A DNA stretch of 64,000 nucleotides from assembly GCA_945787655.1 (NCBI GenBank), contig CALZIJ010000008.1:26644-90643 (forward strand), read 5' to 3'. Both the position numbers and the translations under genes were made by a program. This document shows positions 1 to 63,237 of the stretch, one piece after another. Position 1 is the stretch's first letter. Every line of letters starts with the position of its first letter. The DNA is from Nitrospiria bacterium (GTDB lineage: Bacteria; Nitrospirota; Nitrospiria; SBBL01; JAADHI01). The notes under the pieces are model-generated. The model saw only the letters and a program-made list of their open reading frames with translations, ran no database searches and was not told the origin of the DNA.

Positions 1-2339
1 CCATTGCCGTCGTCAACGGCCACCACACTTCCGGCAGTGATTTGCATCGAATTTCTCTGAATATCATTGGAATTGAGTGTAAAGGAAAATACGCTTTTCA
101 CTCCATCCCCCGTGCCGGCATTTTCTTTGATCACGCTTGAAATCATGGACACCGAAAGCAAACGATCTAAAGAAAGTTCACCATCAATACCGATCATTTC
201 AGTTTCAATGATGCCATTGCCTGCGCTGTTCACGCCACCTGCTATCCAGATTCTATTGTCATTAAACGCATTAATTCCGGAAAAAACGGGAGGAACCGCA
301 TCTGATGTCGGCATCGTAAAGGTATTATCAGCAGAGCTTGTACTGTTCCCTGAAGCATCCTCGCTAATCACCCGGAAATTATAGGCCGTGCTGCCAGTCA
401 GGCCCGTAAGGGTCACGCTGTGGCTGGTTTTAAAGTCACTGTTTAAGGGGGAAGACAGTCCGTAACTAGGACTTGTTCCGTATTCAACTAAAGAGGTGGC
501 CGGTTCATCTGTGGTCCAGGTGATGACTGCTGTTGTGGTATTGACCAACCGGCTTGAAATAAGTGAAACGGCCGGTGCAGCCGCATCAACAGAGGCATCC
601 GTCGTAAAATTAAAATTCTCGGAAAAGGAGACATTTCCCGAAGGGTCAGTACTGAATACCCGGTAATTGTAGGTGGTGTCCAGCGTCAGTCCCCCCAGAA
701 TCACACTGTGGCTGGTTACCGGAGTACTGTTCACCTTGGAAACACTCCCGTAACTTGAGGTCAATCCATATTCCACAAAAGAGGTGGCCGGTTCATCACT
801 GGTCCAGATAATCGTCGCATTGGTACTCCCCGGAGAACCGCTAACACCGACACCGGATAACACAGGAGAACTCAGGTCAGATGTATTGAAGGTAAAATCA
901 CCGGAAAGATCGGCGTTGCCTGATGCATCCACACTTCTAACCTGATAATGGTATGTCGTCGAGGGATTTAAGCCGGACAAACGCACAATGTGCCGCGTTA
1001 CCAAGGTGGCATCAATCACCGGTGTTTCGGCATATGCCGTTGTTTCTCCGTAATTTACTTGCGAAGTGGCCGCCTCATCCGTATCCCACACAATAATGGC
1101 TTCCGACCCTGAAAGCCCGCCATCCGTCGCCGTATGGAACTTCCTTGGGTTGATTAAACGGCCAAAGGGCTGAAAACCTGTCAAGGCAATACGAAAAAGG
1201 TCATTGCCGCGCAATGAAAAATCGTTAAAAAGAAAGGCCCCGGCCGGCTCGTCAAAGTGATACAGTCCGTGAACGGTATTTCTTGCCCCTTCAATAAAGG
1301 GAGAATCGGGAAGCAAAAGCTCTTTCGGCGGATTAAAATCGGATGCCGCATACCGCAAATCCTGGGTCACCCGAACCTCGTCCGCCATGCCGACCCACAG
1401 GTTTTTGCCATCGGGACTTCCAACGGTAAAACGGCTTATGTTTTGGGCAAGCGCCGCGGGGGGCGTCACAATGCTCGAAACCGTTCCATCCAGTGCAATA
1501 TACGCCTGGTTATTGGTCCGATCAATCAGCAGGGCAATATGGTGCCATGCGCCCAGTGTGAGCGGATTGTTTGAAGTAGCTGTCACAGGGGTGCCGGAAG
1601 AAGGATACAGGCGGCCTTTAACTAAAAAATCGGTCCCGACGACCACATCAAAAACACCCTGTTTCCCCATTAAATAAGCATCGGCTGCGGGATTTGGAAG
1701 AGATGTGATAAAAAACCACCCTTCTGCGGATAATTCCATACTTCCGCCGATTCCCATCGAAATTGCAGAACGCCCAAAATGCTTGCCATCCATAATAAAC
1801 TTATTTCCGCTTCCTTCAAAAGCGCCAGGTGGACCAACGAGAACGGTTACTTCATCGGGTTCACTTGATAAGCCCTGGGCCACCGTCGGAATACTTCCGG
1901 TATCTGTGTTATCGGTATTTTGAATGTCTACTTCCGCCTCTTCAACCACAACCAGTTCAATACGATAGACCCCGTCCACATCCCCAATAAATGTTGGGGT
2001 CGGGCTTTCCGGGTCACTCAACTGGGTAGTGCTCCCTGGAGGAGAATCCAGAATACGCCACTGAAATTCAATGACATCCCCATCCGGGTCACTGCTGTTG
2101 GACCCATCCAGAGAGATCAATCCGCCGTTCCCTACATTTTGATCCGCGCCTGCATCGGCGATTGGGGGATTATTGGCCTTAAAAAGATCCTGCGGGCCGG
2201 GCTCATCATCGACACACCCTGGAAGAAAAAACAGGCCACATAACAATAAAATCCGCCCTATGCTTGCCCCATGACAATATAGTAATCCCCTAAAGGTTTT
2301 AATCGGGAATCCACTCTCTTTTTTCTGCTGCTTTTCCAC
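1..2339 (-). CDS. Giant surface lipoprotein, 3' end runs off window (PKD-like + LamG-like + at least 4 Fn3-like repeats)
   Basis: Absent from the ORF track because there is no stop inside the window. Hand translation of the minus strand is open from GTG at 2339-2337 down to base 1. The N-terminus ...GRILLLCGLFFLPGC is a signal peptide plus lipobox. It is followed by ADAGADQNV...LDGSNSSDPDGD (PKD-like) and LGAWHHIALLIDR...ADEVRV (LamG/concanavalin-like). Then come repeats of W.TDE.ATS.V.YG...TSHSV.L.GL...T.Y.YRV.S.D.SGN (Fn3-like). The start lies 7 nt after the stop of the upstream gene. Confidence 0.75.
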   Translation of the reverse strand, partial: MEKQQKKESGFPIKTFRGLLYCHGASIGRILLLCGLFFLPGCVDDEPGPQDLFKANNPPIADAGADQNVGNGGLISLDGSNSSDPDGDVIEFQWRILDSPPGSTTQLSDPESPTPTFIGDVDGVYRIELVVVEEAEVDIQNTDNTDTGSIPTVAQGLSSEPDEVTVLVGPPGAFEGSGNKFIMDGKHFGRSAISMGIGGSMELSAEGWFFITSLPNPAADAYLMGKQGVFDVVVGTDFLVKGRLYPSSGTPVTATSNNPLTLGAWHHIALLIDRTNNQAYIALDGTVSSIVTPPAALAQNISRFTVGSPDGKNLWVGMADEVRVTQDLRYAASDFNPPKELLLPDSPFIEGARNTVHGLYHFDEPAGAFLFNDFSLRGNDLFRIALTGFQPFGRLINPRKFHTATDGGLSGSEAIIVWDTDEAATSQVNYGETTAYAETPVIDATLVTRHIVRLSGLNPSTTYHYQVRSVDASGNADLSGDFTFNTSDLSSPVLSGVGVSGSPGSTNATIIWTSDEPATSFVEYGLTSSYGSVSKVNSTPVTSHSVILGGLTLDTTYNYRVFSTDPSGNVSFSENFNFTTDASVDAAAPAVSLISSRLVNTTTAVITWTTDEPATSLVEYGTSPSYGLSSPLNSDFKTSHSVTLTGLTGSTAYNFRVISEDASGNSTSSADNTFTMPTSDAVPPVFSGINAFNDNRIWIAGGVNSAGNGIIETEMIGIDGELSLDRLLSVSMISSVIKENAGTGDGVKSVFSFTLNSNDIQRNSMQITAGSVVAVDDGN

Positions 2340-2346
2340 TGACCTC

Positions 2347-5151
2347 CTATGGTGTAAATTGTGAAGCGGTTGTACTAATACTTGATATTTTTTCCGCCAA
2401 TTCCTTTCGGTTAAAACCATGAAAAGAAATCCCCTGCGCCTGAAAAGACGCCACTTCCCAAACAACCTCGGTTCCTGCAGAAAAAGGGTTCATTAAAACA
2501 TTCACCTCGCTTGGAAAAGGAGGCAGCTTAATTTCCTGAAGCGTACCCGGCACCCAGGCCTGCCAGAGAAGCATCCCGCCGGGACTCTTTACTCGGACCT
2601 GGTAGAGGTCCGCGGAACCCGCCCCCGCCCCTGGCACCCAGGAAAAAATCGGCTCCAGACCGACTGCCGTGGCACCGGACCCCGGACTCAGTAATACTGG
2701 CGGCTCTAAAAGGGACACATCCATTACCGATGGAATCTCTGGAAGACCCTGTATTAATGAATAACTGCTTTTACCGTCTGATGTGGATGCGGAAACCCCT
2801 AGAAAATAACTTTCAATTCCTTCAGATTCCGAAGAACGGATGCGATATTGAGATGCAGCCTCCCCTTTCAAAACACCGGTGTCCATTCCAGTGAAGACCC
2901 GGCCCTGTGGAACGATTGCGCCAATTGCTGTGACCCTAAGATCGCTGACCTGAAAACCCGAAGGCAGTGTAATCGCCCCGATCGTTTCCTTAAATTCAGG
3001 GCTTTGATCAAAAAAGAAATCAAAGGGCAGCCGCCCGGAAGGACCCAGCGGCCCCAGTCCCGATGAAAAAGTGAGATTATAAGACGCATCGGATTCCCCA
3101 ACGCGAAAAGCCGTGAACCCCAAGCGACGTTTTGATGCGCCAAAGCTGAGTCTGTAATCCCCGCCCCCTGTCGATTTTCCCATTCGAATGATATATTCCC
3201 CTTCAGTAAAAGGGGTAATCCCAACATCACCTGCTGTGTCGGATACACAATCGGCCGTACACTCCAGAGTATCCGCTCCGGAAAGTTCTAATGTCACTTC
3301 AGCAATTCCTGATCCATCAAAACCCTTCACAGAAAGCGGCGACGCAATAGACGCTGTCCCTCTTTTGATCAGCTCGACCAAGCGAACGCTATTGGCATAT
3401 ACGGGGATTGTCTGCCGGTCTATAAGGCCCCCGCCGCTGTCCCGAGCTGAGATTGTGTACATGTCCGATCCCGGAAATGCGGGAAGATCCAGTACAACGA
3501 ACCCACCGGATGCATCCGTCACACACACCCCTTCTCCAAAACGGCAAAGCAGGTTTCCCCCAATGTCTATTGCATAGGCCTTTCCTGCATCATTCCCGGA
3601 TTCATCAGTGACTCTGAGTTCGACATTGGCAGTGGCTTTGAGGTGTGGGTCTCCATTTTCATCCAGTGTCCCCGTCTTTTCGGAAATACGACCCAGAAAC
3701 TCGCCGTTGTTAGGCAAAAAACCCAAACGGATGGGCACATTACCGTCTTCATCCGTTCGCTCAGGGTCAGGAATCGCAGCCTGAATCACCATATTGGTTA
3801 AGGTATTCAGACGAACCACAGTCAAGGGGTAGTTTGATTTTGAACGATCTGAGAAAGAAACTTCCTGAAATGTCGCACGAAACCCGCTACCAGCGGAAAG
3901 AAATGCAACATAACGGCTATTGGGAAGGCGTCCCGAGGCGAAATAGTTCCCTGCGGTAACGACACCCTGATTCGCGACAAAAGACTCCTCAAAGGTATCC
4001 CCGGAAAAGTTGATCAAAGCACGTGCGACGCCGGTGTTCCCACTGCTCAAAGGCCCTAATAACTCTTCCTCCCGATAATCCGGACGAAACGCCACAACCC
4101 GCCCGTTAATACTCACAGTGCTGGACAGCGGTAAGACCAACAGATTAAGAATCGCGGTGCCTTCTGAGGGGAGCCGGAGAAAGTTTTGCCCCGCCCCGAT
4201 TCCTCTGCTGGCAGAATAAATCACCAAATCATTATTGGGCTGCAATTTCAGGAGCAGGAAGTACCCGTTTGAAGTGGTCGCATTCAAGTCAGGATCCAAT
4301 TCTAGAGGCGGATCCTCAGGTCCGGCAGGAGTCACCGTCTTAAAATAATAGGGTCGCCCTGCACTCGTCCCATTAAAATATTCAGCGAATACTTCCACTC
4401 CGGGCTGCGGCGTATTCTCTGAATTCACCACTTTCCCGAATACTGCAATTTGTCTGAAATTTTGCTGAACACCAGCAGCCTCCGCCCAGTTGTCCAAATC
4501 CTTGGCATAAATAAAGGTCAGGTCTTTCGGCGAGGACGAGTTAAAATCAATCCGTTGGTGAGTCAGGGAACGTGTCGGCCCAATTACACTAAAACCACCC
4601 AAGGCATCGATGACCGCATGAAACCCGGTTTCATCTTTTTCGGTATTAAATATCTTCCCTTCCAGCCTGCCGCTTGAAAGGGTCGTATCTCTGGGGACCA
4701 TGGGGATTGCTACGCGAGAAGCATTCACTTGATAAAAAGAAGTATTCTGATACAACAAGGGCAGCTGTGCATCCTCGCACCCCACACAGGCATACACATG
4801 AATGTCCTGCGGCCCGCTGACATCATCAAAGGTCGCTATCCCTTCAAAGGTGGTCGTTTCAGAACGGCCTTCCGTCCCTCCCAAAAAAACCTGGGCATTG
4901 GGAATAGGTCTCCGGACAGTATCGTCAAAAACCTGAACAACCAGTCTTCCTGAAATCGGTCCGCCGGCTGTTCCTCCATCTTTTGAAACCAGGGCCGGAG
5001 TAATATTGTGCTGTTCCGTGTTGCTGCAGGAAACCACTGAAAACAAGGCTCCTGCGAGGATACACAAAAACCAATAAGGCGAGACCATACCTTTACTCTT
5101 GGAAGACGCTTCGGTATTCACAATATATCTTTTTATTTCTGCTTTATTCAT
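2347..5151 (-). CDS. Large putative lipoprotein (934 aa), beta-sandwich-rich, function unknown
   Basis: Long ORF in the track. The N-terminus ...WFLCILAGALFSVVSC is a lipobox-like signal. Repeated segments such as GRLVVQVFDD...AQVFLGG resemble carboxypeptidase-regulatory-like folds. The ATG lies 5 nt after the stop of the TPR-barrel gene. Confidence 0.7.
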   Translation of the reverse strand: MNKAEIKRYIVNTEASSKSKGMVSPYWFLCILAGALFSVVSCSNTEQHNITPALVSKDGGTAGGPISGRLVVQVFDDTVRRPIPNAQVFLGGTEGRSETTTFEGIATFDDVSGPQDIHVYACVGCEDAQLPLLYQNTSFYQVNASRVAIPMVPRDTTLSSGRLEGKIFNTEKDETGFHAVIDALGGFSVIGPTRSLTHQRIDFNSSSPKDLTFIYAKDLDNWAEAAGVQQNFRQIAVFGKVVNSENTPQPGVEVFAEYFNGTSAGRPYYFKTVTPAGPEDPPLELDPDLNATTSNGYFLLLKLQPNNDLVIYSASRGIGAGQNFLRLPSEGTAILNLLVLPLSSTVSINGRVVAFRPDYREEELLGPLSSGNTGVARALINFSGDTFEESFVANQGVVTAGNYFASGRLPNSRYVAFLSAGSGFRATFQEVSFSDRSKSNYPLTVVRLNTLTNMVIQAAIPDPERTDEDGNVPIRLGFLPNNGEFLGRISEKTGTLDENGDPHLKATANVELRVTDESGNDAGKAYAIDIGGNLLCRFGEGVCVTDASGGFVVLDLPAFPGSDMYTISARDSGGGLIDRQTIPVYANSVRLVELIKRGTASIASPLSVKGFDGSGIAEVTLELSGADTLECTADCVSDTAGDVGITPFTEGEYIIRMGKSTGGGDYRLSFGASKRRLGFTAFRVGESDASYNLTFSSGLGPLGPSGRLPFDFFFDQSPEFKETIGAITLPSGFQVSDLRVTAIGAIVPQGRVFTGMDTGVLKGEAASQYRIRSSESEGIESYFLGVSASTSDGKSSYSLIQGLPEIPSVMDVSLLEPPVLLSPGSGATAVGLEPIFSWVPGAGAGSADLYQVRVKSPGGMLLWQAWVPGTLQEIKLPPFPSEVNVLMNPFSAGTEVVWEVASFQAQGISFHGFNRKELAEKISSISTTASQFTP

Positions 5152-5156
5152 AATCG

Positions 5157-8100
5157 TTAAAAGACCAGGCGGAGCCCGACAGTACCGATGATCTTCTCGT
5201 ATTTTCCCAGGGAACTGGTATTTCCCGACACCACGGCATTCTCCGTATCGGGTGGCACACTGCCCAGATTAGATTGATTCAATACCCAGGCCCCGTTCAC
5301 AAAAATCTGAATTCCTCTTTCCAGTCCAATGGTCAAGCCAAGACGGACGGAGTGACTTTCTCCAATCCGTTTTTTATTAAAACCTTCTTCCTGATAAATA
5401 TATGCTTTATATGAAAACTCGTATGAACTGTTGAATTGAATGCCGCGGAACAAGGCCCTGTCATAGATAATTGATGGCGCCGCGGAGACAAACGAAAATT
5501 TCTTCCCTTCGGGATTGAGGTTTAAATTGGCCGAAGTTCGTGTGCCCAGCGTTAAACGGCCGCCGGCCCACCCGTTAATAAAAAAGGATCCCGAAGCTGA
5601 CGGTTGGTACGCATCCAGATCGCTATTGTTAATCGAATCAAAAAGGCTGAACCGGACATCTCCCGCCACACTGAATCGATCCCCAAGGCTTTGAAATCCG
5701 GTCACCGCCAAGGAATGCCCCTGGCTTGAAAAAGCCCCTTCAAACAGGCTGAACAAGTATTCATATTCGACCGTCTTTCTTTTTTGATAGCCTCTCCACT
5801 CATGAAAAATCCGGTTTGAAGTGCTAAAAAAAGAAACTTGATCTTTAATATAACTTGATAAACTGGGTGAAATACGAAGCCCCAGACGTTTCCCTTCCCC
5901 CATATCATATATCCGCTGATATTGCCCCAAGAGACTCGAAAGAATATCACTGGATGGATCTTTGCTTAAAGTGACATTATTATCCACGGTGCTTTGATAA
6001 GTGACCGAAACATTGACAAAAAGGTGCCGTATCCGTTCTTCAATTTCTTCTCTAACCGCGTCCGGTAGGTCCGGGTCCTTTAAAACAACCTTGTAATGTT
6101 CGAGGGCATTTTTAACCTGCCCCACTTCTTCATACAAACTGGCCAGGCGGATACGTTTAGGACGGTCATCCGGCGACAGTTCAACGGCTTTTTTAAAGTG
6201 ACTCAGCGCTTGATTGGCATCTTTTAAGCGCAAGGCAATAAAACCTAAATTAAAGTATGCCATGGGTTCTTCGGGATCGAGAAAAAGGATCGTCTCAAAA
6301 TGAGCCTGGGCCTTTTCAATCTGGTCTTCCTGCCCTAAAACCACCCCTCTGAGCAAATGGTAACGAATCTGTGAAAATCGTGCTGTTTTTCCATGGACAA
6401 GCCACATCAGCGCGGCATAGTCGTTAACAGAATCCTTTTCCTCTCGTCCCATTTCCACCTGCTCCAACAGCACTTGCTCTATGATTTTATTGTTTTCTCC
6501 GGCCCGTTGCATTAAACCCGAAAATAGGGTTTTGGCCTCGTCTATTTTTTCATCCTGAGTATCTAGGATAAAACCTGTTTCGGACAACCCGGTAAAACTG
6601 GACAGATAATGGTCCGCCAAGATCGTATCACGCACCATGTTTAAGATTCTAGCAATCTGAATTCTGATAAGAATCAGATAGGTATTTTTATCTTTGGGAT
6701 CCAAAGCGACTACTTTTTCAAAAGCAGATGCAGCAGATTCCATCTCATTTATTTCGCGATAAAACACGCCCAGGTTATAAAAGTTCACGGGGTTATTCGG
6801 TTGGATTTCAAGAGCGGCCTTAAACCATTTTTCAGCCTCCTCAAATTTTGTCAAACCCATGGCAACCTTGGCATTGACTGAATAGAGACTGACCAGGGCA
6901 TTTTTCCCATCCGGACTATCTGCATTAACCTCCACCGCTTTTTCATAAAAAATAACCGCTTTTTCCAAATCCCCACTTTGCTCAGACATGCTCCCAAGAT
7001 GAATATAGGCTTTCTGATGACGCGGGTTCTCCGAAATGGTTTGCCGAAACGCCTTTTCGGCTTTCTGAAGGTCGCTTAACTCAAGATGGATCTTTCCGAT
7101 ATTAAAATAGATCGCGGCTTTCTCCCTTGAGAAGGTCAATGCTTTTTCAAAAATAGCCAACGCTTCTTTGATCCGGCCCTGAAGCGCGAGAGCACTTCCT
7201 TGAAGAAGAGGCAATTTTTGGTTCGCGCTGATCCCACCCGGCGTTCTGGGGTTAATTTCAACCGCCCGAATAAAAACCTGCAAGGCCTCATCCAGACGGC
7301 CTTGATTTTCGTACAGATTCCCCAAATTTAGATAAGCATCCTGGTGTCTGGGGTCCAATGAAACCACTTTCAAAAAAGCCTGTTCCGCATCCTGGAGCTG
7401 TTTTTTAATCGAATAAATTAAACCGATATTGTAATAAAGGGCAGCCTGTTCCCCCGAAAAAGAAAGGGCCCGCAAAAACAGAGTCAGGGCTTCATCCAAT
7501 CGCCCCTGGCGTGCGAGCAGGCGCCCCTGAAAAACAGGTATTTTGCTTCGAGCAATTTGGGCTCCCCGGCTCCTTGTATCAATTTCAAGGACTTTAAAAA
7601 AGACGTTAAGTGCCTCATCGATCCTGTTTTTCCGTTCGTAAAGAATACCTAAGCGGACGTAGGCTTCTTGGTGATTCGGGTGTATACGAATTACTTTCTT
7701 AAAGGCCGCTTCCGCCTGTTTATCATCTTCAAGTTGAAGATAAACCAGGCCAATATTATATTGCACCCCAGGATCATTTGGAGAAATCTGTTCTGCTGTC
7801 TTAAAAAATTTTAGCGCTTCTTCAAAATTTTGCGAACGCGCCTGCATAATCCCGTTAATCATATTGACTTTAAATTGGCTGATCGTTTTAATTTCATCTG
7901 CCGGATTTTGTTTTATCACTTGATCATATAGGGCTAAGGCCTCAGGCAGCTTTTGCGTGGCTTCATAAAGATCCGCCAAACGAAGATAAGCCTCAATCGC
8001 CGAAGGCGCCAGCCGGATCGTTTCTTTAAACGCCGCCTCCGCTTTTTCAATATCTCTTTTCTGCATATATCCAATACCCAGTTGAAGATGGATCTCGGCC

Positions 8101-8288
8101 TTATCCGGGAATTTTAATCGCATTGATTCAAAATGGGTGATAGAATCATCCCATTTCCCTTCTTTTATCAACCTGTTTCCTTCTTCCATCTGACTTGAAA
8201 ATACAGAATCAGAAAGTGTTTGAGCTGATGCAATCCCCGACAAAATGAGTATTACGATAACTGCCTGTGCACTGCATCGTTTTAACAT
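5157..8288 (-). CDS. Giant TPR-repeat protein fused to a C-terminal ~290-aa outer-membrane beta-barrel-like domain
   Basis: The track ORF is 5157..8330. I prefer the ATG at 8288 (MLKRCSAQAVIVILILSGIASAQ is a signal peptide), 5 nt after the stop of the upstream gene. About 750 aa carry TPR-type A..F......P....A...LG repeats. The tail has alternating-hydrophobic strands and ends ...GTVGLRLVF (terminal Phe, as in OMPs). Confidence 0.75.
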   Translation of the reverse strand: MLKRCSAQAVIVILILSGIASAQTLSDSVFSSQMEEGNRLIKEGKWDDSITHFESMRLKFPDKAEIHLQLGIGYMQKRDIEKAEAAFKETIRLAPSAIEAYLRLADLYEATQKLPEALALYDQVIKQNPADEIKTISQFKVNMINGIMQARSQNFEEALKFFKTAEQISPNDPGVQYNIGLVYLQLEDDKQAEAAFKKVIRIHPNHQEAYVRLGILYERKNRIDEALNVFFKVLEIDTRSRGAQIARSKIPVFQGRLLARQGRLDEALTLFLRALSFSGEQAALYYNIGLIYSIKKQLQDAEQAFLKVVSLDPRHQDAYLNLGNLYENQGRLDEALQVFIRAVEINPRTPGGISANQKLPLLQGSALALQGRIKEALAIFEKALTFSREKAAIYFNIGKIHLELSDLQKAEKAFRQTISENPRHQKAYIHLGSMSEQSGDLEKAVIFYEKAVEVNADSPDGKNALVSLYSVNAKVAMGLTKFEEAEKWFKAALEIQPNNPVNFYNLGVFYREINEMESAASAFEKVVALDPKDKNTYLILIRIQIARILNMVRDTILADHYLSSFTGLSETGFILDTQDEKIDEAKTLFSGLMQRAGENNKIIEQVLLEQVEMGREEKDSVNDYAALMWLVHGKTARFSQIRYHLLRGVVLGQEDQIEKAQAHFETILFLDPEEPMAYFNLGFIALRLKDANQALSHFKKAVELSPDDRPKRIRLASLYEEVGQVKNALEHYKVVLKDPDLPDAVREEIEERIRHLFVNVSVTYQSTVDNNVTLSKDPSSDILSSLLGQYQRIYDMGEGKRLGLRISPSLSSYIKDQVSFFSTSNRIFHEWRGYQKRKTVEYEYLFSLFEGAFSSQGHSLAVTGFQSLGDRFSVAGDVRFSLFDSINNSDLDAYQPSASGSFFINGWAGGRLTLGTRTSANLNLNPEGKKFSFVSAAPSIIYDRALFRGIQFNSSYEFSYKAYIYQEEGFNKKRIGESHSVRLGLTIGLERGIQIFVNGAWVLNQSNLGSVPPDTENAVVSGNTSSLGKYEKIIGTVGLRLVF

Positions 8289-8293
8289 CGAAT

Positions 8294-9118
8294 TCAAAAG
8301 AAAAACCGTATGGACCCTGTGATTTCCCATCCGCTTAAATCAATCACCAATGGCCGAGCCACATTATTTTCATCCCGATAAAAAACAGGACTCCCTTCCT
8401 CGGGAATAGAGCGATTCGCTCCAATCGCATCATCCACGGCATCCCGCTCTAAGAATGTATGACGAAAGGATTTATAAAATAATTGCCGGGTCTTACCCTT
8501 TCGATAAATAACATCTGCCCCAAGGGCAACCCACTTTCTCAGGAAGTATTCCCCTCCCAACCCCCATTCCAACATGTATCCACCCTTGCTTTCTGCGCGC
8601 GATAGAATGTTCCTCAAAAATTGTTGGTTCCCGTTATCAAATACATAATTGTAATCCTCACGATAAGTCACCTTGATCAAACTAAATAATCCAATATCAA
8701 TGTAGACCCGGTATTTTTTGGGTTCATCCAAAAAATGATATCTTCCGTGCAGCGCATATTCATTAAAAGAAACACGGGTGGTTCTTTTTGCCGTAAAGGG
8801 AATCATTCCAAAATCCTGAAACAACATCTCGCTTTCTTCAAACGCGGTAGATCGCCCTTCCCAAAACGAGCTTTTTATCAATAAAGAAAACCTGGGACGG
8901 ATACGCCATTCCACGCTCACCCCATGTAAAGGCCCACCGAGAATTCCAGGACTGCCTCCCACCCTGGGCGGCGTAAAAGTGGTTTGCTGCAGTTGCCCCT
9001 CGTTCAATAACTTTAATCTGGCCTGGCTGTAACCGGTGAATACCTGAACATTCCATTCGGCGAATGCTTCCGGGGGCGGCACCAAGATCCATATTAGATA
9101 CAAAATGAAAAAAGGCAC
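8294..9118 (-). CDS. Putative outer-membrane beta-barrel protein (274 aa)
   Basis: GTG start. The signal-like N-terminus ends ...PEAFA/EW. The sequence has alternating amphipathic strands rich in Y/G/R and a C-terminus ...GSIRFFF typical of BAM substrates. Confidence 0.6.
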   Translation of the reverse strand: MPFFILYLIWILVPPPEAFAEWNVQVFTGYSQARLKLLNEGQLQQTTFTPPRVGGSPGILGGPLHGVSVEWRIRPRFSLLIKSSFWEGRSTAFEESEMLFQDFGMIPFTAKRTTRVSFNEYALHGRYHFLDEPKKYRVYIDIGLFSLIKVTYREDYNYVFDNGNQQFLRNILSRAESKGGYMLEWGLGGEYFLRKWVALGADVIYRKGKTRQLFYKSFRHTFLERDAVDDAIGANRSIPEEGSPVFYRDENNVARPLVIDLSGWEITGSIRFFF

Positions 9119-9316
9119 TTAGTTCCTGCCCAGCAACAAACGATTATTTACAATATTACTTAATATTTTATCAACAAAGTATACCATATTCCCCAAATCC
9201 TGCTGAATTGATCCCCCAACAAAAACATAATAAAATATTTACTTTCAATTACTTATGAACATAAAAGCCTTGTTTACATTTTTATTTACATCAAGCACCC
9301 GAATTCTCCTGCCTTT

Positions 9317-10840
9317 TTAAAAGCTATACTTGATTTCGAAAAATATCCGATCCCGGTTGACAAAAGTCCCGACAAACTGGAAAAGCCGGTCATTTGCCGG
9401 GGCAGCCAAATCCGGCAGCAATGTCTCTTCATGTCCAAAGAAAAAATCCCCGCCCAAAGCCAGTTGGATATTATCCGTCAAGCGATAACTCGCTTTGGGT
9501 TTAAGTAAGATTTCTTCATTATTAATTAAGTAGAGGAAAAACACCTGACCGGTTAGTGCTCCCGAAATAAAGGTTTTTCTGGTAAAAAAACTGATAAAAG
9601 TATCGTATTGGTCCTGAAAGAAAACGGCTTTATGGTCAAAGATGATCCACTGGGATATCGCCAATGAATATTCATATCCAAACAGGCTGCTATCCACTTC
9701 GAGCCCCCATCGTATATGGTCTCTCTTTAAAGCGCCGTCGTGGTCCAATAGGTTATCTCCATCCAGATCCGCCAACCGGGTTCCAAAATATTTTCCGACA
9801 ATGTAGGATGCTTCTCCCTTTAATATGAAACTTTTTAGATTCGCCATAATTGCCGTTCCAAAAATGTGCATTCTTTTAAATTGCGGTTGGAAGACAGGCC
9901 CGCAATCAGGATCGGTTATTGGCTGATCAAACTGCAAGGCTGTCGGAATGCATTTTTGTGGAGGAGTTACAAACCTAAACCCTGTATATTTTCGAAACGG
10001 TGTAGGAAAGTCATCCCAGGTATAAAAATAGCTAAATGCCAAATCGAGCCCTTGGAATATCCTTTTAATACGAAATCCAGCTTCAGAATTTCTAAATGTT
10101 TGGGGAGGCTCTTTTTGACCTGGTAGTTCCTGAAACAATTCCCACTCCGAACCCGGTGGGGCCGGCTTATGCGGTGTAATTTCAGGAATCCACAATGCCT
10201 CGATTTGATATGATCCTGTATAATAATTCGCTTTGAGTGTCCAGAGCGGTATACGAAAATCGATTAAATCCGGCAGGATAAATTCTCTGAAATTGAGTGG
10301 GTTGATTTCATCAAGGATACGGAATCCAAGTAATTGTTCCCATATAATAATCTGCCGGCCTATCCTGAGATCCAGATTATCTATAGACCAATCCAGATAA
10401 AGCTCCCGGTATTCAACGAGTATCCTTTCATCTTCCTCAGCGCGCTGAGAGACAAAGGCCAAAGGCAGATTAGGGTCATTGGGAGGATTTACTGTGTCAT
10501 AGTCTGCAAAGAGATAAACAGCATCATACCAAGTCCAACCGGAAGCATATAATTTTAAATCTTGTGACAGATCCGCACTGCCTTCCAAATAGAGAATATT
10601 CCTGATTTTAGTAAAAGATACAGGTTCTCTAATTCGAAATGCGGTCTCATTTTTTAAATATCCCCCCCAGCTATAGGAAGGAAATCCATCTATATCCGCT
10701 GCCCACAATTTTATTGGGGGAAATAAAAAAAAAATGATAAAAATTAAGCATGAATACAATAATTCCGTCCCTATTCTCATACCATTCATTTTAACAGAAA
10801 AAACCAAGAACGGAGACTGGGAAAAGGACATTTTGGACAA
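9317..10840 (-). CDS. DUF1302-like outer-membrane beta-barrel protein
   Basis: The signal peptide ends ...PPIKLWA/AD; the true start may be the internal Met at 10789 or 10780. The motif YRELYLDW..DNLDLRIGRQIIIWEQ...ILDEINPLN matches my memory of the DUF1302/alginate-export style motif RxGRQxxxWGE...inP. The C-terminus is ...FFEIKYSF. Confidence 0.6.
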   Translation of the reverse strand: MSKMSFSQSPFLVFSVKMNGMRIGTELLYSCLIFIIFFLFPPIKLWAADIDGFPSYSWGGYLKNETAFRIREPVSFTKIRNILYLEGSADLSQDLKLYASGWTWYDAVYLFADYDTVNPPNDPNLPLAFVSQRAEEDERILVEYRELYLDWSIDNLDLRIGRQIIIWEQLLGFRILDEINPLNFREFILPDLIDFRIPLWTLKANYYTGSYQIEALWIPEITPHKPAPPGSEWELFQELPGQKEPPQTFRNSEAGFRIKRIFQGLDLAFSYFYTWDDFPTPFRKYTGFRFVTPPQKCIPTALQFDQPITDPDCGPVFQPQFKRMHIFGTAIMANLKSFILKGEASYIVGKYFGTRLADLDGDNLLDHDGALKRDHIRWGLEVDSSLFGYEYSLAISQWIIFDHKAVFFQDQYDTFISFFTRKTFISGALTGQVFFLYLINNEEILLKPKASYRLTDNIQLALGGDFFFGHEETLLPDLAAPANDRLFQFVGTFVNRDRIFFEIKYSF

Positions 10841-10892
10841 TGAGAACCGGTATAATTTTTACAGAAATCAGAATAGACCTTAAGGATATCTC

Positions 10893-10947
10893 AACAAAAA
10901 AAGGGTCTATGGATAAAATCATGTTTTGATTTCGTCCATAGACCCTT
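10893..10947 (-). terminator. Intrinsic terminator/attenuator inside the locus
   Basis: A perfect 13-bp inverted repeat, aagggtctatgga (10901-10913) / tccatagaccctt (10935-10947). On the minus strand it is followed by TTTTTTTGTT. It sits between the 216-aa gene and the DUF1302-like gene. Confidence 0.6.
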
Positions 10948-10968
10948 GGAATACTGATATGGTAGATA

Positions 10969-11619
10969 TTAGAAGTTTTGGTTCACAACAGCCGGGCTAC
11001 CTGTATCAAACAAAATACTTGAGCTAAATCCAGGTGTTCCAGGATCGCTTACCAGCTGATCAATACTCGTTGTAAAACCACCCGTACCATCTGGGGTCAG
11101 GGTTAAGTCATTACGATCCAAGCCTTGGCTGGGATCTAAAATGCTTTGCGTAACATTGATATCGGTTCCAACTAAATCAGCTTCTGTTCCTGTTCTTGCA
11201 ATGATATTCAGGTTATCCATTCTAACCAATACATCAACGGAAGGGACTCCGAGAGAATCTGTTGCTGCCTTAAGGCTTTGCTTAAACGTAATGTTATTGG
11301 TTGAAGTCGTTGTCGTCGCACCCGTAATAGCACCACCCGGGGTAAACGTTTCCTGAATAAACTCTGAACCTGTTGAGCCATCCGGTTTACTCCGGATAAT
11401 CATGTGGTTTAAAAGTTCCGTTCCAATCACGACTTGTTCTTGAAAAAATGTACTGTCACCAACACTTTCAAAAAGCCGGTTGGTCCCACCTGTAATTCCG
11501 CAAGTGGCCTGGCTGTTACAAGTGCCATCGTTAAACGACGTTGTTTGTGCTTCCACCATACCGGCAGACAAAAGGATACCCAAGCTTAATACACCCAGGA
11601 TTTTAAATTTTGATTTCAT
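10969..11619 (-). CDS. Small secreted protein, paralogue family member A (216 aa)
   Basis: Strong RBS (AGGAGG). Signal peptide MKSKFKILGVLSLGILLSAGMVEA/Q. It shares the motifs FFQEQV, SEFIQETF and ITFKQSL with the 242-aa neighbour. The mature part has two Cys. It ends ...VVNQNF. Confidence 0.7.
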   Translation of the reverse strand: MKSKFKILGVLSLGILLSAGMVEAQTTSFNDGTCNSQATCGITGGTNRLFESVGDSTFFQEQVVIGTELLNHMIIRSKPDGSTGSEFIQETFTPGGAITGATTTTSTNNITFKQSLKAATDSLGVPSVDVLVRMDNLNIIARTGTEADLVGTDINVTQSILDPSQGLDRNDLTLTPDGTGGFTTSIDQLVSDPGTPGFSSSILFDTGSPAVVNQNF

Positions 11620-11668
11620 TATTTATACCTCCTAATCAATGCGTTTTCCCAATTTAATCCTGCTGTCA

Positions 11669-12397
11669 TTATGGCCCTTGAACAATCACAGGGGAACCAC
11701 CGGTTGTAAAGTCCATATTTTGACTAAACACAGACACTCCAAGGCCGTCAACTACATTGACCTCTTGGGAAATGGTGGTACAGAAAGAAGCAGTCGCTCC
11801 GCATGAAGGGTCTGTTACTTCTTGACCTTTCACAGTGAAATTCGGAAGGATATCAACATTTGTAAAACTTAACCCTCCAGCCTGGCCCGAAATCGCAGCC
11901 GAACCATCGACCTGCTGATGAATGTGAATATCCTGCCCTGGATCCAGACTGGATGTCGTTGAAAAACCAGGACCACTCAAGGTTTGCCTAAATGAAATAC
12001 TGGTTTGAGCTGGGGCGGGGGTCACCGGAGCCGTCGTGTTATTTTGGTTGGTCGGACTCCGTTGAGACCCCATCAAAACAAAGGATTCCTGAATAAAGGA
12101 GCTTCCGACTGCAGAAGCTTCCATCACAGAGTGCACAGCCAGTTCGGGACCAGAACCGACATCAATGTTCACAAATTCCTGAGTAAAGAAACTTCCACTA
12201 CCCATTGTACCCTCTGAGACAACCAATTGCCCTGAAAGTGGGACTCCGCTTCCATCTATTCCAGAGTGAACAAATGGAAAAGGAGAGGGATTATCGCTAA
12301 ACGAAGGTGCCCCAACCTGGGCTTCAGACTTTCCGTATCCTGAAGCAATCAGAACACCTGATATTAATAGGAAGATTATTCCTTTTTTCAGATTCAT
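11669..12397 (-). CDS. Small secreted protein, paralogue family member B (242 aa)
   Basis: Strong RBS (AAGGAGG). The signal peptide ends ...GKSEA/Q. Motifs FFTQEFV, SSFIQESF and ISFRQTL are collinear with member A. The mature part has two Cys. Confidence 0.7.
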   Translation of the reverse strand: MNLKKGIIFLLISGVLIASGYGKSEAQVGAPSFSDNPSPFPFVHSGIDGSGVPLSGQLVVSEGTMGSGSFFTQEFVNIDVGSGPELAVHSVMEASAVGSSFIQESFVLMGSQRSPTNQNNTTAPVTPAPAQTSISFRQTLSGPGFSTTSSLDPGQDIHIHQQVDGSAAISGQAGGLSFTNVDILPNFTVKGQEVTDPSCGATASFCTTISQEVNVVDGLGVSVFSQNMDFTTGGSPVIVQGP

Positions 12398-12464
12398 ACC
12401 TTACCTCCTTTTAGTAAAAAAACAAGACAAAAACCACGTTACTACAAAAAAAAAAATTTTTCAA

Positions 12465-13577
12465 TCAAAATCCACCAAAACCACCACCCCCGCCGCCACT
12501 GCCATTCGGGAAATTAGTAGACAAACCGCTGCTAAAAGAATCACTCCCACTACCGCCCCATCGCTCCCAGTTAATCGGGGTGAGCTGGAAGTTATCGTCA
12601 TCGTGAACAGGAATCAAAGATCGGACTGAACTCGCCGCTCCACCGCCGGAACACCCGTCTCGAGTGCCCCGATCACTATTAAAATTAAAATTGCCTCTGT
12701 CGGCTGGATCGTTAAAATCATTACATCGGCTAAAATTAAGTAACTGGTTGTTGACGGGATCGACTATTTTGACCGCTTCCAGGTCATTCCACCAATCAAT
12801 CGTCCCATTACTTGGGCTTCCACCCCCAAAACCACCCCCGCCCCCGCCACCGGCAGGTATACTTACGGCGACATCATGAGAAAGATCTCCCGGGCTTAAG
12901 GTAAAATTTTGACTTTGTGTAATATCTAATGGCATCACACCTGCGAAGCTGGTCATCCAAACCCCGATATCCTGGCGCACCAGCACTTTCCCGGACGCAC
13001 TGTCAAAAAAAGGCACTTGACGAAAATGCATGTCCATCTGGTTTAGGCCGTTTGTCAGCTGCGCCACTTTCCTTTCTGTAATATCGGAATGAATACTCAC
13101 AGGCTGCCGGAAGCTGTCTATGACTGTTTTTTCTGTCAAGCCAAAGGCCGGGTCTGTGATTTCCTGACTGAAAATCAAGTTTCCCTCCGGGTCGTTGGTA
13201 CTGCCGGAACCAAATTTCGTATAACTCTCCATCGTAAAATCAGAGGAAGACATGCTTTGAAAAAAGAAACTTTCTCCACTGGAATTCGTCACCTTTCCCT
13301 GGGTAAATCCGGGGCTTTGCATCACATCTTCGACAACAAGCCCGGACACAGTTGCTGGATCAGTACCCCAAGGGGCAGGCGCATCAGATGCGAGGGGGGT
13401 TACAGTCGCTGCGGGAAGGGTTCTTGTAATGTTTCCACCTCCACCTCCACCTCCGCCTCCAAACTGCGCATAGGCCGGGGAAACGGAAACTATTGCAACC
13501 ACAGCAAACACCGGAAATAGTAGCGTATTTTTGTTTTTAAACCATTTTGTTGTATTTTGAAACGGCAACATACGCAC
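12465..13577 (-). CDS. Glycine-tract secreted protein, distant member C of the same family (370 aa)
   Basis: The signal peptide ends ...VSPAYA/QF. The start could be the ATG at 13571. Poly-Gly runs occur right after the cleavage site (QFGGGGGGGG), internally (AGGGGGGGFGGG) and at the C-terminus (GSGGGGGGFGGF). Motifs FFFQSM, LIFSQEI and FRQPV echo members A and B. Confidence 0.65.
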   Translation of the reverse strand: MRMLPFQNTTKWFKNKNTLLFPVFAVVAIVSVSPAYAQFGGGGGGGGGNITRTLPAATVTPLASDAPAPWGTDPATVSGLVVEDVMQSPGFTQGKVTNSSGESFFFQSMSSSDFTMESYTKFGSGSTNDPEGNLIFSQEITDPAFGLTEKTVIDSFRQPVSIHSDITERKVAQLTNGLNQMDMHFRQVPFFDSASGKVLVRQDIGVWMTSFAGVMPLDITQSQNFTLSPGDLSHDVAVSIPAGGGGGGGFGGGSPSNGTIDWWNDLEAVKIVDPVNNQLLNFSRCNDFNDPADRGNFNFNSDRGTRDGCSGGGAASSVRSLIPVHDDDNFQLTPINWERWGGSGSDSFSSGLSTNFPNGSGGGGGGFGGF

Positions 13578-13833
13578 ACTCGCATTTTGTCTCCCTTTGG
13601 TTAAAAAGAAGATGGAATAAGTACGGCTAAAACAGTCATTTTCTCCTTGATTCTCTCTACATATTTACAACAATTACTACTTTATTGCCAATATATACAA
13701 GGAAGCTTACCCTAGAAACGAGATAATGTCAATCACCAACATAACAAAAAAGTAATATTTTTTATCTTTTATAAATAATTCAAAATTCTATCTATCCACA
13801 GTTTAACTCTAAATTTGCTCATTTTTCCATATT

Positions 13834-16233: not shown

Positions 16234-17238
16234 TCAAGAAGGATTATTAGCTGTTTCAAGCGGGACTTCTCCTCCTGTTTCAGTATAAAGAATCGTTTGT
16301 TTTGTTCCGGTCACCCAACCCATGTTTTGATTGGTAAAATGAACGCCGGTTAAAAATTGAAGGGTGCCGGTGGTTTGCTGCTCCCAGGTTTCCCCGCCAT
16401 CTTTTGTTTGCAATACCGTTCCGCCCGCGCCCACAACCCAGCCATGAAGCTCATCAACAAAAGAGACATCGGTCAGCAAAGAAGTCAAACTGCTTTTTTG
16501 AGGGGTCCAACTGACTCCGGCATCCATCGTCTTGAGAATGATGCCGCCATTTCCAACAATCCAGCCCGTTTGATCATTCACGAAAAAAATGCGGAGCAAG
16601 TCCCTATTGGTTCCCGTTTCCCGCAATGACCAATTTTTACCCCCATTATTCGTGACAAGCAGATTCCCTTTGTGGCCTGTGATCCATCCGTGATCGGGAT
16701 CAGTAAACAAAACCGAATTCATTGTTAAGCGGGAATCTCCCTCGGCCTTCTGCCAATGCAAACCGCCATCATCGGTAGATAGCAGATTGCCTTTAACCCC
16801 GGTCACCCAGCCCTGTTTTTCGTTAATAAAATAAACTGAGGTGAGATCTTTTTTAACACCGCTGGATTGCGGCCCCCAGGTTTTTCCTCCATCGGATGTA
16901 TGTGCAATCAGGCCGCGATCTCCGACCGCCCATCCCAGTTGTTCATTCAGAAAAAAGGTGGAAACAATCAACACCTTTGTCCCCGTTTCCTGGACAACCC
17001 AATCTTTCCCGCCATTTTCTGTGTGCAGAATAACCCCTTTATTACCCGTGACCCAGCCTTTTTTATCATTCAGAAAAAATATCCCGCCCAAAGACGTATC
17101 CACGGGAACCGCTTGTAACTCCCAGCCGGTTGAAATTTCCGATCGATCCGGCATTTCAGGCGGTCTGGGACACCCTGCGATTAAAAACCCCAGAAACACC
17201 CATAATAATGCTTTTGCTTGCGTTTTCGTCAGATTCAT
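16234..17238 (-). CDS. Ycf48/BNR-like beta-propeller lipoprotein
   Basis: The track ORF extends to 17343. I prefer the Met at 17238 (MNLTKTQAKALLWVFLGFLIAGC contains a lipobox). Repeated units read GW.VG..G.I..T.DGG..W. Confidence 0.7.
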   Translation of the reverse strand: MNLTKTQAKALLWVFLGFLIAGCPRPPEMPDRSEISTGWELQAVPVDTSLGGIFFLNDKKGWVTGNKGVILHTENGGKDWVVQETGTKVLIVSTFFLNEQLGWAVGDRGLIAHTSDGGKTWGPQSSGVKKDLTSVYFINEKQGWVTGVKGNLLSTDDGGLHWQKAEGDSRLTMNSVLFTDPDHGWITGHKGNLLVTNNGGKNWSLRETGTNRDLLRIFFVNDQTGWIVGNGGIILKTMDAGVSWTPQKSSLTSLLTDVSFVDELHGWVVGAGGTVLQTKDGGETWEQQTTGTLQFLTGVHFTNQNMGWVTGTKQTILYTETGGEVPLETANNPS

Positions 17239-17269
17239 TTTTTCAGAATTCCACTCTAAGTATCCGCCC

Positions 17270-18253
17270 TTACTGAACGTTTGATAATGTCCAGGGTTCT
17301 TCCTGGTTTTCTTTTTTATAAATCCCCCGCATGGTCCCGGCAAACAGGGTATTGTTTTTCAATGGGTGGGAAGCAACGGTCAATACAGACTTGGGGGATT
17401 GGGAAAGCAACTGCCAGGATTCACCCCCGTCTTTCGATTCATAAACCCCATCATTATTGCCAACGTAAACAATATTGGGGTCTTTTTTATCCACAGAAAT
17501 GGACGAAACAAACTTGGTGGAAAGCCCGTTGTTGCGTTCCTCCCAGTGCGCACCCAGGTCTGTTGATTTAAAGACGCCTTTATTCGTCCCGGCATAAATC
17601 ACCTTGGGGTTAACCGGGTCAAACTGAACGTTGTTCACCGCCCATTCTTTTGTTTCCCGCGATGTGATCCGCCATTGTCTTGCAGAGTTCGTTGTGATAT
17701 ACACCCCTTCGTTTGTCCCTGCCAAAATCACGGATCGGCTTTGCGGATTAAAAGCAAGTGAAATCACGAAACGATTTGCCATGCCCATATTGGCATCCCG
17801 CCACTGACTCCCGCCGTCCGTTGTCAAATAAATCCCGTGGTTCGTACCCACATACACCCGTTTGGATTCTACCGGATCGACGATCACCGCATTCACGGCC
17901 TGTGTTCCGACATTATCATCAAGCCCACGATTCGCAATGTTCCAATGCCCGCCACTGTCAATACTTCGATAAACACTGTCCCCATACGTCCCTGTATATA
18001 TAACAGAGGAAAGAGATGGGGTCACCGCAATCGAGACGATGTTGTAGGAGGTTAAGCCCTCGTTGGTTTTATTAAAGGTATTTCCACCATCCATACTTTT
18101 ATAAAAGCCTCCACCAGAGGTTCCGATATATACAATCTCTGGTTTATGATAACTAAAACCGATCGAGAAAACATTGACCCGTTGTTCACAGCCTGCCAGA
18201 AGGGTTAAAACTAGCGAAATAATTAATTTAAAAACAGGGTAAGGCCGCACCAT
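17270..18253 (-). CDS. BNR/sortilin-type beta-propeller lipoprotein
   Basis: The track ORF extends to 18307. The internal Met gives MVRPYPVFKLIISLVLTLLAGC (lipobox). Repeated S.DGG..W BNR motifs include DGGNTF, SGGHW, DGGSQW, LGAHW and DGGESW. Confidence 0.7.
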   Translation of the reverse strand: MVRPYPVFKLIISLVLTLLAGCEQRVNVFSIGFSYHKPEIVYIGTSGGGFYKSMDGGNTFNKTNEGLTSYNIVSIAVTPSLSSVIYTGTYGDSVYRSIDSGGHWNIANRGLDDNVGTQAVNAVIVDPVESKRVYVGTNHGIYLTTDGGSQWRDANMGMANRFVISLAFNPQSRSVILAGTNEGVYITTNSARQWRITSRETKEWAVNNVQFDPVNPKVIYAGTNKGVFKSTDLGAHWEERNNGLSTKFVSSISVDKKDPNIVYVGNNDGVYESKDGGESWQLLSQSPKSVLTVASHPLKNNTLFAGTMRGIYKKENQEEPWTLSNVQ

Positions 18254-18530
18254 ATTTAGTCCTGAAAATACCCTAGGCATCGTATCATATCTTGTTAAGA
18301 TAGACAATCAATGGGCATCATCCACCTTATACCTCAGATATTGATCTTTTCCAGCCCCTTGCGGACCTCATTCTCCCGGAGATTCAAAGGCACCACTTGG
18401 TTTTTTGCGGAACGATCTATTTTTATCAAAAGAGTTTCGCAGACCTGTAAAGATAGACCCTGATCAATCGAGGGAACCCGCGCCCTCATCCGACAGGATC
18501 AAAGGGGAAACCGTCATCGACTGTCCTTCA

Positions 18531-30741: not shown

Positions 30742-30873
30742 TAATTTTTCCTCCTCAAGGAAATTTAAGGAAAGTGAACACAACCACCTTTCCCTGCCTG
30801 ACCATTAAAACCTTCTTTATTGAGCTTCACTACTCCACAGCTCATTCATCTCAAATCTTTAATTCCTCGGAAA

Positions 30874-40618: not shown

Positions 40619-40694
40619 GGGGCTGTAGCTCAGCTGGGAGAGCACAAGGCTGGCAGTCTTGGGGTCAGGGGTTCGATCCCCCTCAGCTCCACCA
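40619..40694 (+). tRNA. tRNA-Ala (anticodon GGC)
   Basis: Cloverleaf folded by hand. The acceptor stem GGGGCTG/CAGCTCC carries the G3:U70 alanine identity pair. The anticodon loop is CTGGCAG. The T-loop is GGTTCGATCC, and CCA is encoded. Confidence 0.93.
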
Positions 40695-55442: not shown

Positions 55443-55517
55443 TGGGGCGTCGACAAGTGGCAAGTCACGAGATTTTGGATCTCGCATTCCCAGGTTCGAA
55501 CCCTGGCGCCCCAGCCA
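55443..55517 (+). tRNA. tRNA-Gln (anticodon UUG)
   Basis: Hand fold. The acceptor stem TGGGGCG/CGCCCCA has U1:A72, with discriminator G73. The anticodon stem is CGAGA/TCTCG with loop TTTTGGA. The T-arm is CCAGG TTCGAAC CCTGG, and CCA is encoded. Confidence 0.9.
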
Positions 55518-63167: not shown

Positions 63168-63237
63168 TATGTTCTCCTTAAAAAAGGGCAAAAGATTTCA
63201 AATTATTTTAGCATAGGCTTTTTTTTCTTGCCATTGT

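Follow-up and report, generated by a model that had tools for sequence, protein, structure and literature searches.

An eight-gene locus of exported envelope proteins in a Nitrospiria bacterium: a candidate outer-membrane secretion or assembly module

What is built or moved by eight adjacent genes whose products all leave the cytoplasm? The question is raised by a locus at one end of a 64,000-nt stretch of Nitrospiria DNA (contig CALZIJ010000008.1 of assembly GCA_945787655.1; hereafter the window, whose numbering is used for all positions unless otherwise stated). Positions 1–13577 are filled by eight co-directional open reading frames (ORFs) on the minus strand, which we named g1–g8 in gene order. 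A first-pass annotation made from the letters alone had described them as 13.5 kb of all-exported envelope genes that continue past the window edge, and the ORF list of the window places the genes where it had put them. The reading that we favour, tentatively and at somewhat less than an even chance, is that the locus encodes a Sec-dependent, ATP-independent outer-membrane export or assembly module for a proteinaceous surface structure; the function is suggested by gene content and context.

The first three genes encode secreted proteins: g1 (12465–13577; 370 aa, or 368 aa as annotated), g2 (11669–12397; 242 aa) and g3 (10969–11619; 216 aa). They are followed by a divergent DUF1302 outer-membrane barrel of 504–507 aa (g4, 9317–10840), a small outer-membrane barrel of 274 aa (g5, 8294–9118), a fusion of tetratricopeptide repeats (TPR) with a barrel (g6, 5157–8330; 1043 aa from the annotated start at 8288) and two giant lipoproteins, g7 (2347–5151; 934 aa) and g8 (1–2339, leaving the window). 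The full-length g8 product, read on the exact-match contig CALZGB010000119.1 (GCA_945786955.1), has 1116 aa. Upstream of the block the window holds the FtsY, YbeY and PhoH genes, and downstream of g8 on the matching contig lie DUF4321 and then a convergent uvrB. As these neighbours are housekeeping genes on both flanks, the locus comprises exactly eight genes.

Export signals and conservation of the block

A Sec or lipobox signal can be read on every product, as had been claimed, and the signals are conserved among the orthologues. The secreted proteins carry signal peptidase I (SPI) sites (g1 AYA/QF, g2 SEA/QV and g3 VEA/QT, the slash marking the cut). SPI signals are also present on g4–g6, whose C-termini end in Phe (g4 KYSF, g5 RFFF, g6 RLVF); an aromatic last residue is usual for outer-membrane barrels. 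The lipoboxes kept in the orthologues are L-x-S-C-S in g7 and L-x-G-C-V-[DN] in g8. Pfam and NCBIfam searches with g1–g8 returned no enzyme, ATPase, glycosyltransferase, cytoplasmic or inner-membrane domain, in agreement with the earlier statement that cytoplasmic enzymes and inner-membrane transporters are missing, and no cytoplasmic or inner-membrane partner was seen within the locus in any genome examined. Four products (g1, g2, g3 and g5) matched no family in either collection.

Several C-termini, those of the orthologues included, end in Pro after a hydrophobic stretch: g2 in IVQGP, g7 in FTP (in the marine clade, see below) and g8 in EI[YF][FY]P. The C-terminus of g3 is always Q-[NS]-F. 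Judged by their sequences, these endings could be sorting or assembly signals.

All eight products, as well as FtsY and UvrB, form singleton clusters at 90% identity. Since this is the case even for FtsY and UvrB, the organism is poorly sampled. A pattern-based scan of 185,579 species-representative genomes, limited in sensitivity, yielded seven loci, all from the Manganitrophus-like lineage: Nitrospirota OFTM211 and OFTM336, Nitrospiria D_2_bin.8, Nitrospirae nzgw269, two Ca. Manganitrophaceae metagenome-assembled genomes (MAGs) and the complete chromosome of Ca. Manganitrophus sp. GAC4. Going by their names, OFTM211 and OFTM336 would come from the Oslofjord subsea-tunnel study, in which Nitrospirota MAGs of the order SBBL01, related to Ca. 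Manganitrophus, were described (PMC11442690).

By tblastn, all eight genes are collinear in every locus that is long enough (L002, L004, L005, L007, L010 and L011). In L006, g1 is absent and the contig ends within g8. The identity of g5 across the loci is 53–77%. In the marine clade the block is flanked by FtsY and DUF4321-UvrB, and in the freshwater Manganitrophus clade by RlmN and a methyltransferase. Co-conservation in related genomes had been proposed as a check on the locus; as the same order and content are kept in two differing genomic contexts, chance adjacency in a single genome is excluded. The block seems to be a hallmark of Manganitrophus-like bacteria.

In the freshwater clade the block is preceded, upstream of g1, by a ninth gene in the same orientation, which encodes a lipoprotein of 560–581 aa that has a Big_5 domain and a tether rich in Gly and in which an L-K-Y-A-x-C motif recurs (positions 3378–5060 of L002 and 2926–4671 of L004; also in L010 and L011). 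This gene is absent from the marine clade and the window. In L010 (CP114561.1, Ca. Manganitrophus sp. GAC4), g1, g6, g7 and g8 are fragmented by apparent frameshifts, for which assembly or sequencing error is a more likely cause than pseudogenisation.

Secreted proteins, lipoproteins and transcription units

The description of g2 and g3 as two small secreted paralogues agrees with hhalign, which relates them over their full length (probability 97%, E 3.7e-11). We also considered g1 as a paralogue of this pair, and hhalign detected no relationship. All three proteins are Gly/Ser/Thr-rich, acidic and Lys/Arg-poor, and each has one conserved Cys pair, a feature frequent in extracellular proteins. 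In g1 there are three Gly tracts, one directly after the signal peptide (QFGGGGGGGGG), one in the middle and one at the C-terminus (GGGGGGFGGF), conserved in six of the seven sequences of the orthologue alignment, together with the two conserved Cys. In g3 the conserved residues include a C-x6-C near the mature N-terminus and the C-terminal Phe, and g2 and g3 contain neither Tyr nor Trp. The Tyr/Trp girdle of membrane barrels is absent from g1–g3; their composition argues against membrane barrels and fits extracellular proteins. Amyloid-type internal repeats were sought in g1–g3 and none were found. The PDB holds no sequence relatives of g1 or of g2/g3.

Of the two lipoproteins, g7 gives a faint CarboxypepD_reg match (Pfam) and has no sequence relatives in the PDB. 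The g8 product contains PKD, LamG and three FN3/PAP_N domains (Pfam), and precomputed Pfam matches to the full-length product add a Kelch propeller. Only marine-clade proteins have the FN3 (purple-acid-phosphatase-N-like) block; the freshwater orthologues compared (L002, L004 and L011) have 836–932 aa and are ∼200–280 residues shorter.

A terminator-like hairpin was found on the minus strand at 10895–10945, ∼25 nt past the g3 stop, by direct reading and RNAfold. It consists of GGGTCTATGG ... CCATAGACCC, then T7, with a 10-bp GC-rich stem and a predicted energy of -34 kcal/mol. At this position, each of the eight loci compared has a GC-rich hairpin with a T-rich tail; the sequences differ, and the spacer between g3 and g4 ranges from 137 to 946 nt. 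The conserved hairpin therefore implies at least two transcription units, g1–g3 and g4–g8; as predicted from sequence, the locus is laid out in these two units and is not a single operon.

This modifies the earlier suggestion that short stop-start gaps couple the genes translationally. The gaps themselves hold, at 5 nt for g5/g6, 5 nt for g6/g7 and 7 nt for g7/g8, and these junctions are short in the relatives too; a single coupled unit of eight genes does not, given the terminator after g3. The g5/g6 value refers to the annotated g6 start at 8288, as the longest g6 ORF, starting at 8330, would overlap g5 by 37 nt. Tight packing extends over g5–g8 in the window genome, where g4 and g5 are separated by 198 nt, and over g4–g8 in the freshwater clade.

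The first three genes had also been credited with the strongest ribosome-binding sites. Strong GGAGG sites do precede g2 and g3, but g8 has one as well, and g1 has GGGAG at long spacing. A terminator after g3 combined with strong sites at g2 and g3 is the arrangement of loci in which subunit genes precede the machinery, and g1–g3 are probably expressed more strongly than g4–g8. A promoter-like site on the minus strand (TTTAGA-17-TAGAAT, 13785–13813) lies in the 256-nt gap upstream of g1, and the evidence for it is weak. The intergenic spacers matched no Rfam family, riboswitches and other known RNAs included.

Outer-membrane barrels and the recurring core

The earlier assignment of g4 as a DUF1302-like barrel was confirmed by Pfam PF06980 (54.7 bits, cut-off 23.2, E 1.2e-14); the match is partial and spans residues 80–346. 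With 64–80% identity across orthologues, g4 ranks with the best-conserved genes in the block.

Structure models cover g5 and the g6 barrel, and agree with the 274-aa barrel and the TPR-barrel fusion of ∼1040 aa that the first-pass annotation had proposed. For g5, AlphaFold2 (AF2) predicts a small barrel with strands of 24–29 residues (pLDDT 84.7, pTM 0.77). Its best Foldseek matches are OmpW, OprG and OmpA, with TM scores normalised to the target (TMt) of 0.65–0.71. The 20 homologues of g5 show 51% identity or more, and an organism is named for four of them, in each case a Nitrospirota MAG.

The N-terminal part of g6 (6030–8288) comprises the signal peptide and ∼750 TPR residues (Pfam TPR_1, TPR_2 and TPR_16, E down to 3e-87; the generic TPR_Slam at E 7e-10), predicted to form a periplasmic arm. 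The C-terminal part (5157–6029) is a 290-residue β-barrel that starts at about residue 770, the TPR matches covering the region ahead of it. The AF2 model of this part, made with a 10-sequence alignment, has 14 strands (pLDDT 90.3, pTM 0.83), and Foldseek ranks the 14-stranded OmpG and CymA best, with TM scores normalised to the query (TMq) of up to 0.68 (0.67–0.68 for OmpG). No sequence relatives of the g6 barrel were found in the PDB. A word-index protein search with the whole of g6 retrieved TPR proteins only, and relatives of the barrel were gathered by an exhaustive HMMER search (E<=1e-3) of 1.84 billion representative proteins. The family is very rare, with 11 relatives in this set, and all nine full-length relatives are TPR-barrel fusions.

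Distant TPR-barrel genes, which were also sought by a metagenome scan with a subset alignment of the barrel, stand in a recurring context. A g5-like gene lies directly upstream of them in L012, L013, L014/15, L018, L019, L021 and L022 (for the remote ones, hmmsearch gave E 1e-17 to 1e-28), and L012, L013, L016, L018, L019 and L022 also have a g4-like DUF1302 gene (E 1e-81 to 1e-125). The g4-like, g5-like and TPR-barrel genes thus form a conserved core that recurs in distant lineages; the record of one distant-locus protein names a hydrothermal-vent gammaproteobacterial MAG.

In the complete locus L022, the order is a secreted Gly/Ser/Thr-rich protein of 359 aa, a terminator, a LolA_like/DUF1329 protein, a small protein (ribbon-helix-helix-like by eye, no Pfam match), DUF1302, the g5-like barrel and the TPR-barrel. 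The related L012, truncated at its start, likewise has as its first gene that of a secreted Gly/Ser/Thr-rich, Lys/Arg-poor protein, with a terminator behind it. The LolA_like/DUF1329 protein (PF17131) is found in L022, L012 and L013 (E about 1e-38, with values of 3e-38 and 3e-40). The remote secreted proteins and g2/g3 have in common a motif G-x-G-F-L-Q-E ... ES[FY]V (hhalign E 1.2e-4, probability 55%), which G-x-S-F-F-x-Q in g1 resembles by eye. In L016 the TPR-barrel and DUF1302 genes stand beside a 1276-aa CarboxypepD_reg/FG-GAP protein, which has domains in common with g7. Directly downstream of the TPR-barrel gene there is always a convergent ABC-2 pair (ABC2_membrane and ABC_tran) in L012 (its positions 8047–10331), L019, L021 and L022 (its positions 10957–13280). 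As these loci are close relatives, the linkage may reflect shared ancestry.

Proposed function, alternatives and neighbouring genes

Gene content and operon layout suggest a role in secretion or assembly. In the mechanism that we propose, all eight products would cross the inner membrane by Sec, and g7 and g8 would then be lipidated and carried by the Lol pathway. The three outer-membrane barrels, namely the DUF1302-like g4, the OmpW-like g5 with its long protruding strands and the 14-stranded barrel of g6, would cooperate, with the long periplasmic TPR arm of g6 serving as a docking or chaperone platform. The clients would be g1–g3 and, in the Manganitrophus-like lineage, perhaps also g7 and g8 with their adhesin-type domains, and a proteinaceous structure would be built on the cell surface. 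As no ATP source is encoded, we propose that the energy for transport comes from extracellular folding or assembly, as it does in curli, Fap, chaperone-usher systems and Slam.

Several points weigh against this proposal. We know of no precedent for a protein-export machine built from three barrels. Consensus scans of the region for promoters and terminators performed no better than on shuffled sequence. The core is present without a lipoprotein gene in several distant loci, and the giant lipoproteins are thus not universal partners of it. The motif that links g1–g3 to the remote secreted proteins is weak and partly by eye, a lead and not a result. Finally, the phenotypes connected with the DUF1302 family to date concern the envelope or lipids, and protein secretion is not among them (bioRxiv 10.1101/072470; 10.1101/2020.07.04.188060).

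The absence of a named system, as claimed in the first-pass annotation, stands insofar as hidden Markov model searches of g1–g8 (Pfam and NCBIfam) and Foldseek searches of g5 and the g6 barrel do not place the set in a characterised pathway. It needs qualification because g4 belongs to DUF1302, the distant loci contain LolA-like/DUF1329 proteins and the layout of g6 is Slam-like. No described system accounts for the set; the type XI secretion system (Slam/T11SS) is the closest in architecture and the DUF1302/DUF1329 set the closest by homology.

The likeness to curli and Fap is one of organisation. In those systems, too, essentially all structural products are exported, no ATPase is encoded and two small secreted proteins, rich in Gln/Asn/Gly/Ser/Thr, are paralogues; in curli the subunit genes also have their own transcription unit (csgBA vs. 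csgDEFG). The locus differs in that it has no CsgG or FapF homologue and that g2 and g3 are without internal imperfect repeats. Among g1–g8 there was no Pfam or NCBIfam match to the curli proteins CsgG, CsgE/F and CsgA/B, and g1–g3 showed no curli-type repeats. The comparison of g5 with FapF gave a TM score of 0.24, with no repeats of the FapB/C type and no match to a Fap model. The same two collections gave no match to a chaperone-usher usher or PapD-like chaperone, or to the Por/Spr core or cargo C-terminal domain of the type IX secretion system; a PorW/SprE NCBIfam match is TPR-only and far below its cut-off.

An unlikely alternative, yet one to be taken seriously, is a system of the DUF1302/DUF1329 type with a hydrophobic molecule or an envelope lipid as its cargo. 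The barrels would be the conduit through the outer membrane, and g1–g3 and the lipoproteins would capture or carry the cargo in the periplasm or at the surface. Cofitness of DUF1302, DUF1329, a Ycf48-like BNR protein and a COG1033 RND exporter has been reported in Proteobacteria, together with the proposal that they export an envelope component (bioRxiv 10.1101/072470). In keeping with this, g4 passes the Pfam threshold for DUF1302, the fold of g5 is nearest OmpW and OprG, and LolA_like/DUF1329 proteins occur in distant loci with the same core. Moreover, two Ycf48/PSII_BNR β-propeller genes lie on the minus strand 2.7 kb upstream of g1 (16234–17343 and 17270–18307), with FtsY, YbeY and PhoH in between. 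As listed, these two ORFs overlap by 74 nt, and one start is probably mis-assigned. However, the freshwater clade does not have the BNR genes in the vicinity of the block, and both a LolA-like/DUF1329 protein and an RND transporter are absent from the locus in the window; nor did Pfam reveal an RND protein among the longest ORFs of the window, of which ten, of 469–904 aa, lie outside the locus. As candidates for LolA-like carriers, g1–g3 were rejected by hhalign, which found no such similarity. This alternative would also leave three separately transcribed, well-conserved secreted proteins and the giant lipoproteins unexplained. The published set (bioRxiv 10.1101/072470; 10.1101/2020.07.04.188060; PMC13499233) and the locus are alike in the DUF1302 member and in the LolA-like/DUF1329 partner of the distant versions. 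They differ in that the proteobacterial set has not been described with a g5 barrel, a TPR-barrel, three secreted proteins or giant lipoproteins.

Distinctly unlikely, in our judgement, is a translocon for surface lipoproteins akin to Slam/T11SS, in which the TPR region of g6 would receive g7 and g8 from Lol and the barrel would flip them outward, with g4, g5 and g1–g3 as accessories. Slam consists of TPR and a predicted 14-stranded DUF560 barrel, and about half of the Slam genes adjoin lipobox genes (PMC5449769). The combination of a periplasmic TPR region with a C-terminal barrel of ∼290 residues and 14 strands, followed at 5 and 7 nt by two lipoprotein genes, is thus reproduced in the locus. 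One member of the g6 barrel family, P0111, aligns collinearly with SlipAM/DUF560 (20.6 bits, cut-off 22, E 3.6e-4), and a remote relationship of the g6 barrel to DUF560 is possible on sequence grounds. However, the g6 barrel of the window itself has no PF04575 match at E<=5, and other family members match BBP2_2 or Porin_4. Neither TbpBBD nor the lipoprotein C domain was matched in g1–g3, g7 or g8 (Pfam, E<=0.01), and the distant loci that have the core and no lipoprotein gene also speak against this explanation. Slam is a single outer-membrane protein known only from Proteobacteria (bioRxiv 10.1101/2024.09.26.615229), and its short N-terminal TPR domain is many times exceeded in length by the TPR arm of g6. 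In summary, Slam/T11SS (PMC5449769; PMC8406197; bioRxiv 10.1101/2024.09.26.615229) and the locus agree in Sec dependence, the absence of an ATPase, the TPR plus 14-stranded barrel and the adjoining genes for lipoprotein and/or soluble secreted clients. The locus differs from it in having two extra conserved barrels, a TPR arm of ∼750 residues and a Nitrospirota host.

We consider it improbable that the locus provides the outer-membrane components of a synthase-dependent exopolysaccharide pathway of the BcsC, PgaA, PelB or AlgK/AlgE type, with the synthase elsewhere and lipoproteins that bind or modify the glycan. A fusion of TPR and barrel is the hallmark of BcsC, PgaA and PelB, and a long periplasmic TPR domain followed by a C-terminal barrel is the feature that these proteins and AlgK/AlgE have in common with g6. 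AlgE has been reported as the nearest solved fold to DUF1302 (PMC13499233). LamG, Kelch, PKD and CarboxypepD_reg domains are, in turn, common in glycan-binding proteins. The NCBIfam TPR matches of g6 include BcsC, PgaA and PrsT, all below their cut-offs; those to BcsC and PgaA involve the TPR region only and are far below, and the barrel matches neither BCSC_C nor the PgaA barrel. By fold, the 14-stranded barrel is nearer to OmpG/CymA than to PelB (TMq 0.47) or BcsC (TMq 0.44). The locus also lacks a synthase operon, and neither of the two genomic contexts nor the distant loci have a glycosyltransferase, synthase or c-di-GMP receptor gene within the block or adjacent to it.

A small probability, of a similar order, is left for some explanation that we have not listed. 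That unrelated envelope genes are adjacent by chance, for which the internal terminator and the 198-nt gap between g4 and g5 are the only arguments, is refuted by the conservation of order and content down to 53% g5 identity with two sets of flanks and by the recurrence of the core trio in other lineages, including the locus of the gammaproteobacterial-named MAG.

Returning to the export and assembly module, its parts are of recognisable kinds (a TPR-barrel, a DUF1302 barrel and a small OmpW-like barrel); what is new, by the literature searched, is their combination, how rare the TPR-barrel family is and the restriction to one lineage. A bolder and doubtful extension is that the trio g4/g5/g6 forms the core of an undescribed multi-barrel secretion/assembly pathway, whose clients would be Gly/Ser/Thr-rich acidic proteins sharing an N-terminal G-x-G-F-x-Q-E module. 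In Manganitrophus-like bacteria, giant surface lipoproteins would have been added to this pathway to build a cell-surface matrix, which might handle Mn(II) or Mn-oxide on the surface of a chemolithoautotroph that becomes encrusted with mineral.

If the three barrels are indeed one machine, this would be a new ATP-independent route for proteins to the Gram-negative surface and would provide a mechanistic context for the widespread, functionless DUF1302 family. To our knowledge, Manganitrophus-like bacteria are the only bacteria known to live by manganese oxidation, and they form Mn-oxide nodules. A conserved and probably abundant surface apparatus would be a candidate for managing mineral formation at their cell surface. 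The main text of the published comparative genomics deals with cytochromes, oxidases and complex I and does not address a surface apparatus (PMC9040806). Should the locus serve ordinary envelope maintenance, its value would be limited to annotation.

The remainder of the window contains ordinary housekeeping genes, such as secA (60477–63191, minus strand) and tRNA genes at 40619–40691 and 55443–55514 (plus strand). Two MshE-type T2SSE ATPases (MshEN and T2SSE domains) and a PilS-like histidine kinase, encoded on the plus strand at 18584–20494, 46999–48810 and 51296–53035, are parts of a type IV pilus or type II secretion system and are unrelated to the locus. Two bd-like oxidase genes, each with only a partial match to cytochrome bd subunit I, lie at 28798–30783 (minus strand, 661 aa) and 32627–34537 (plus strand, 636 aa). 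They are of the kind discussed as terminal oxidase candidates in Ca. Manganitrophaceae, and their presence is consistent with a Manganitrophus-like lineage.

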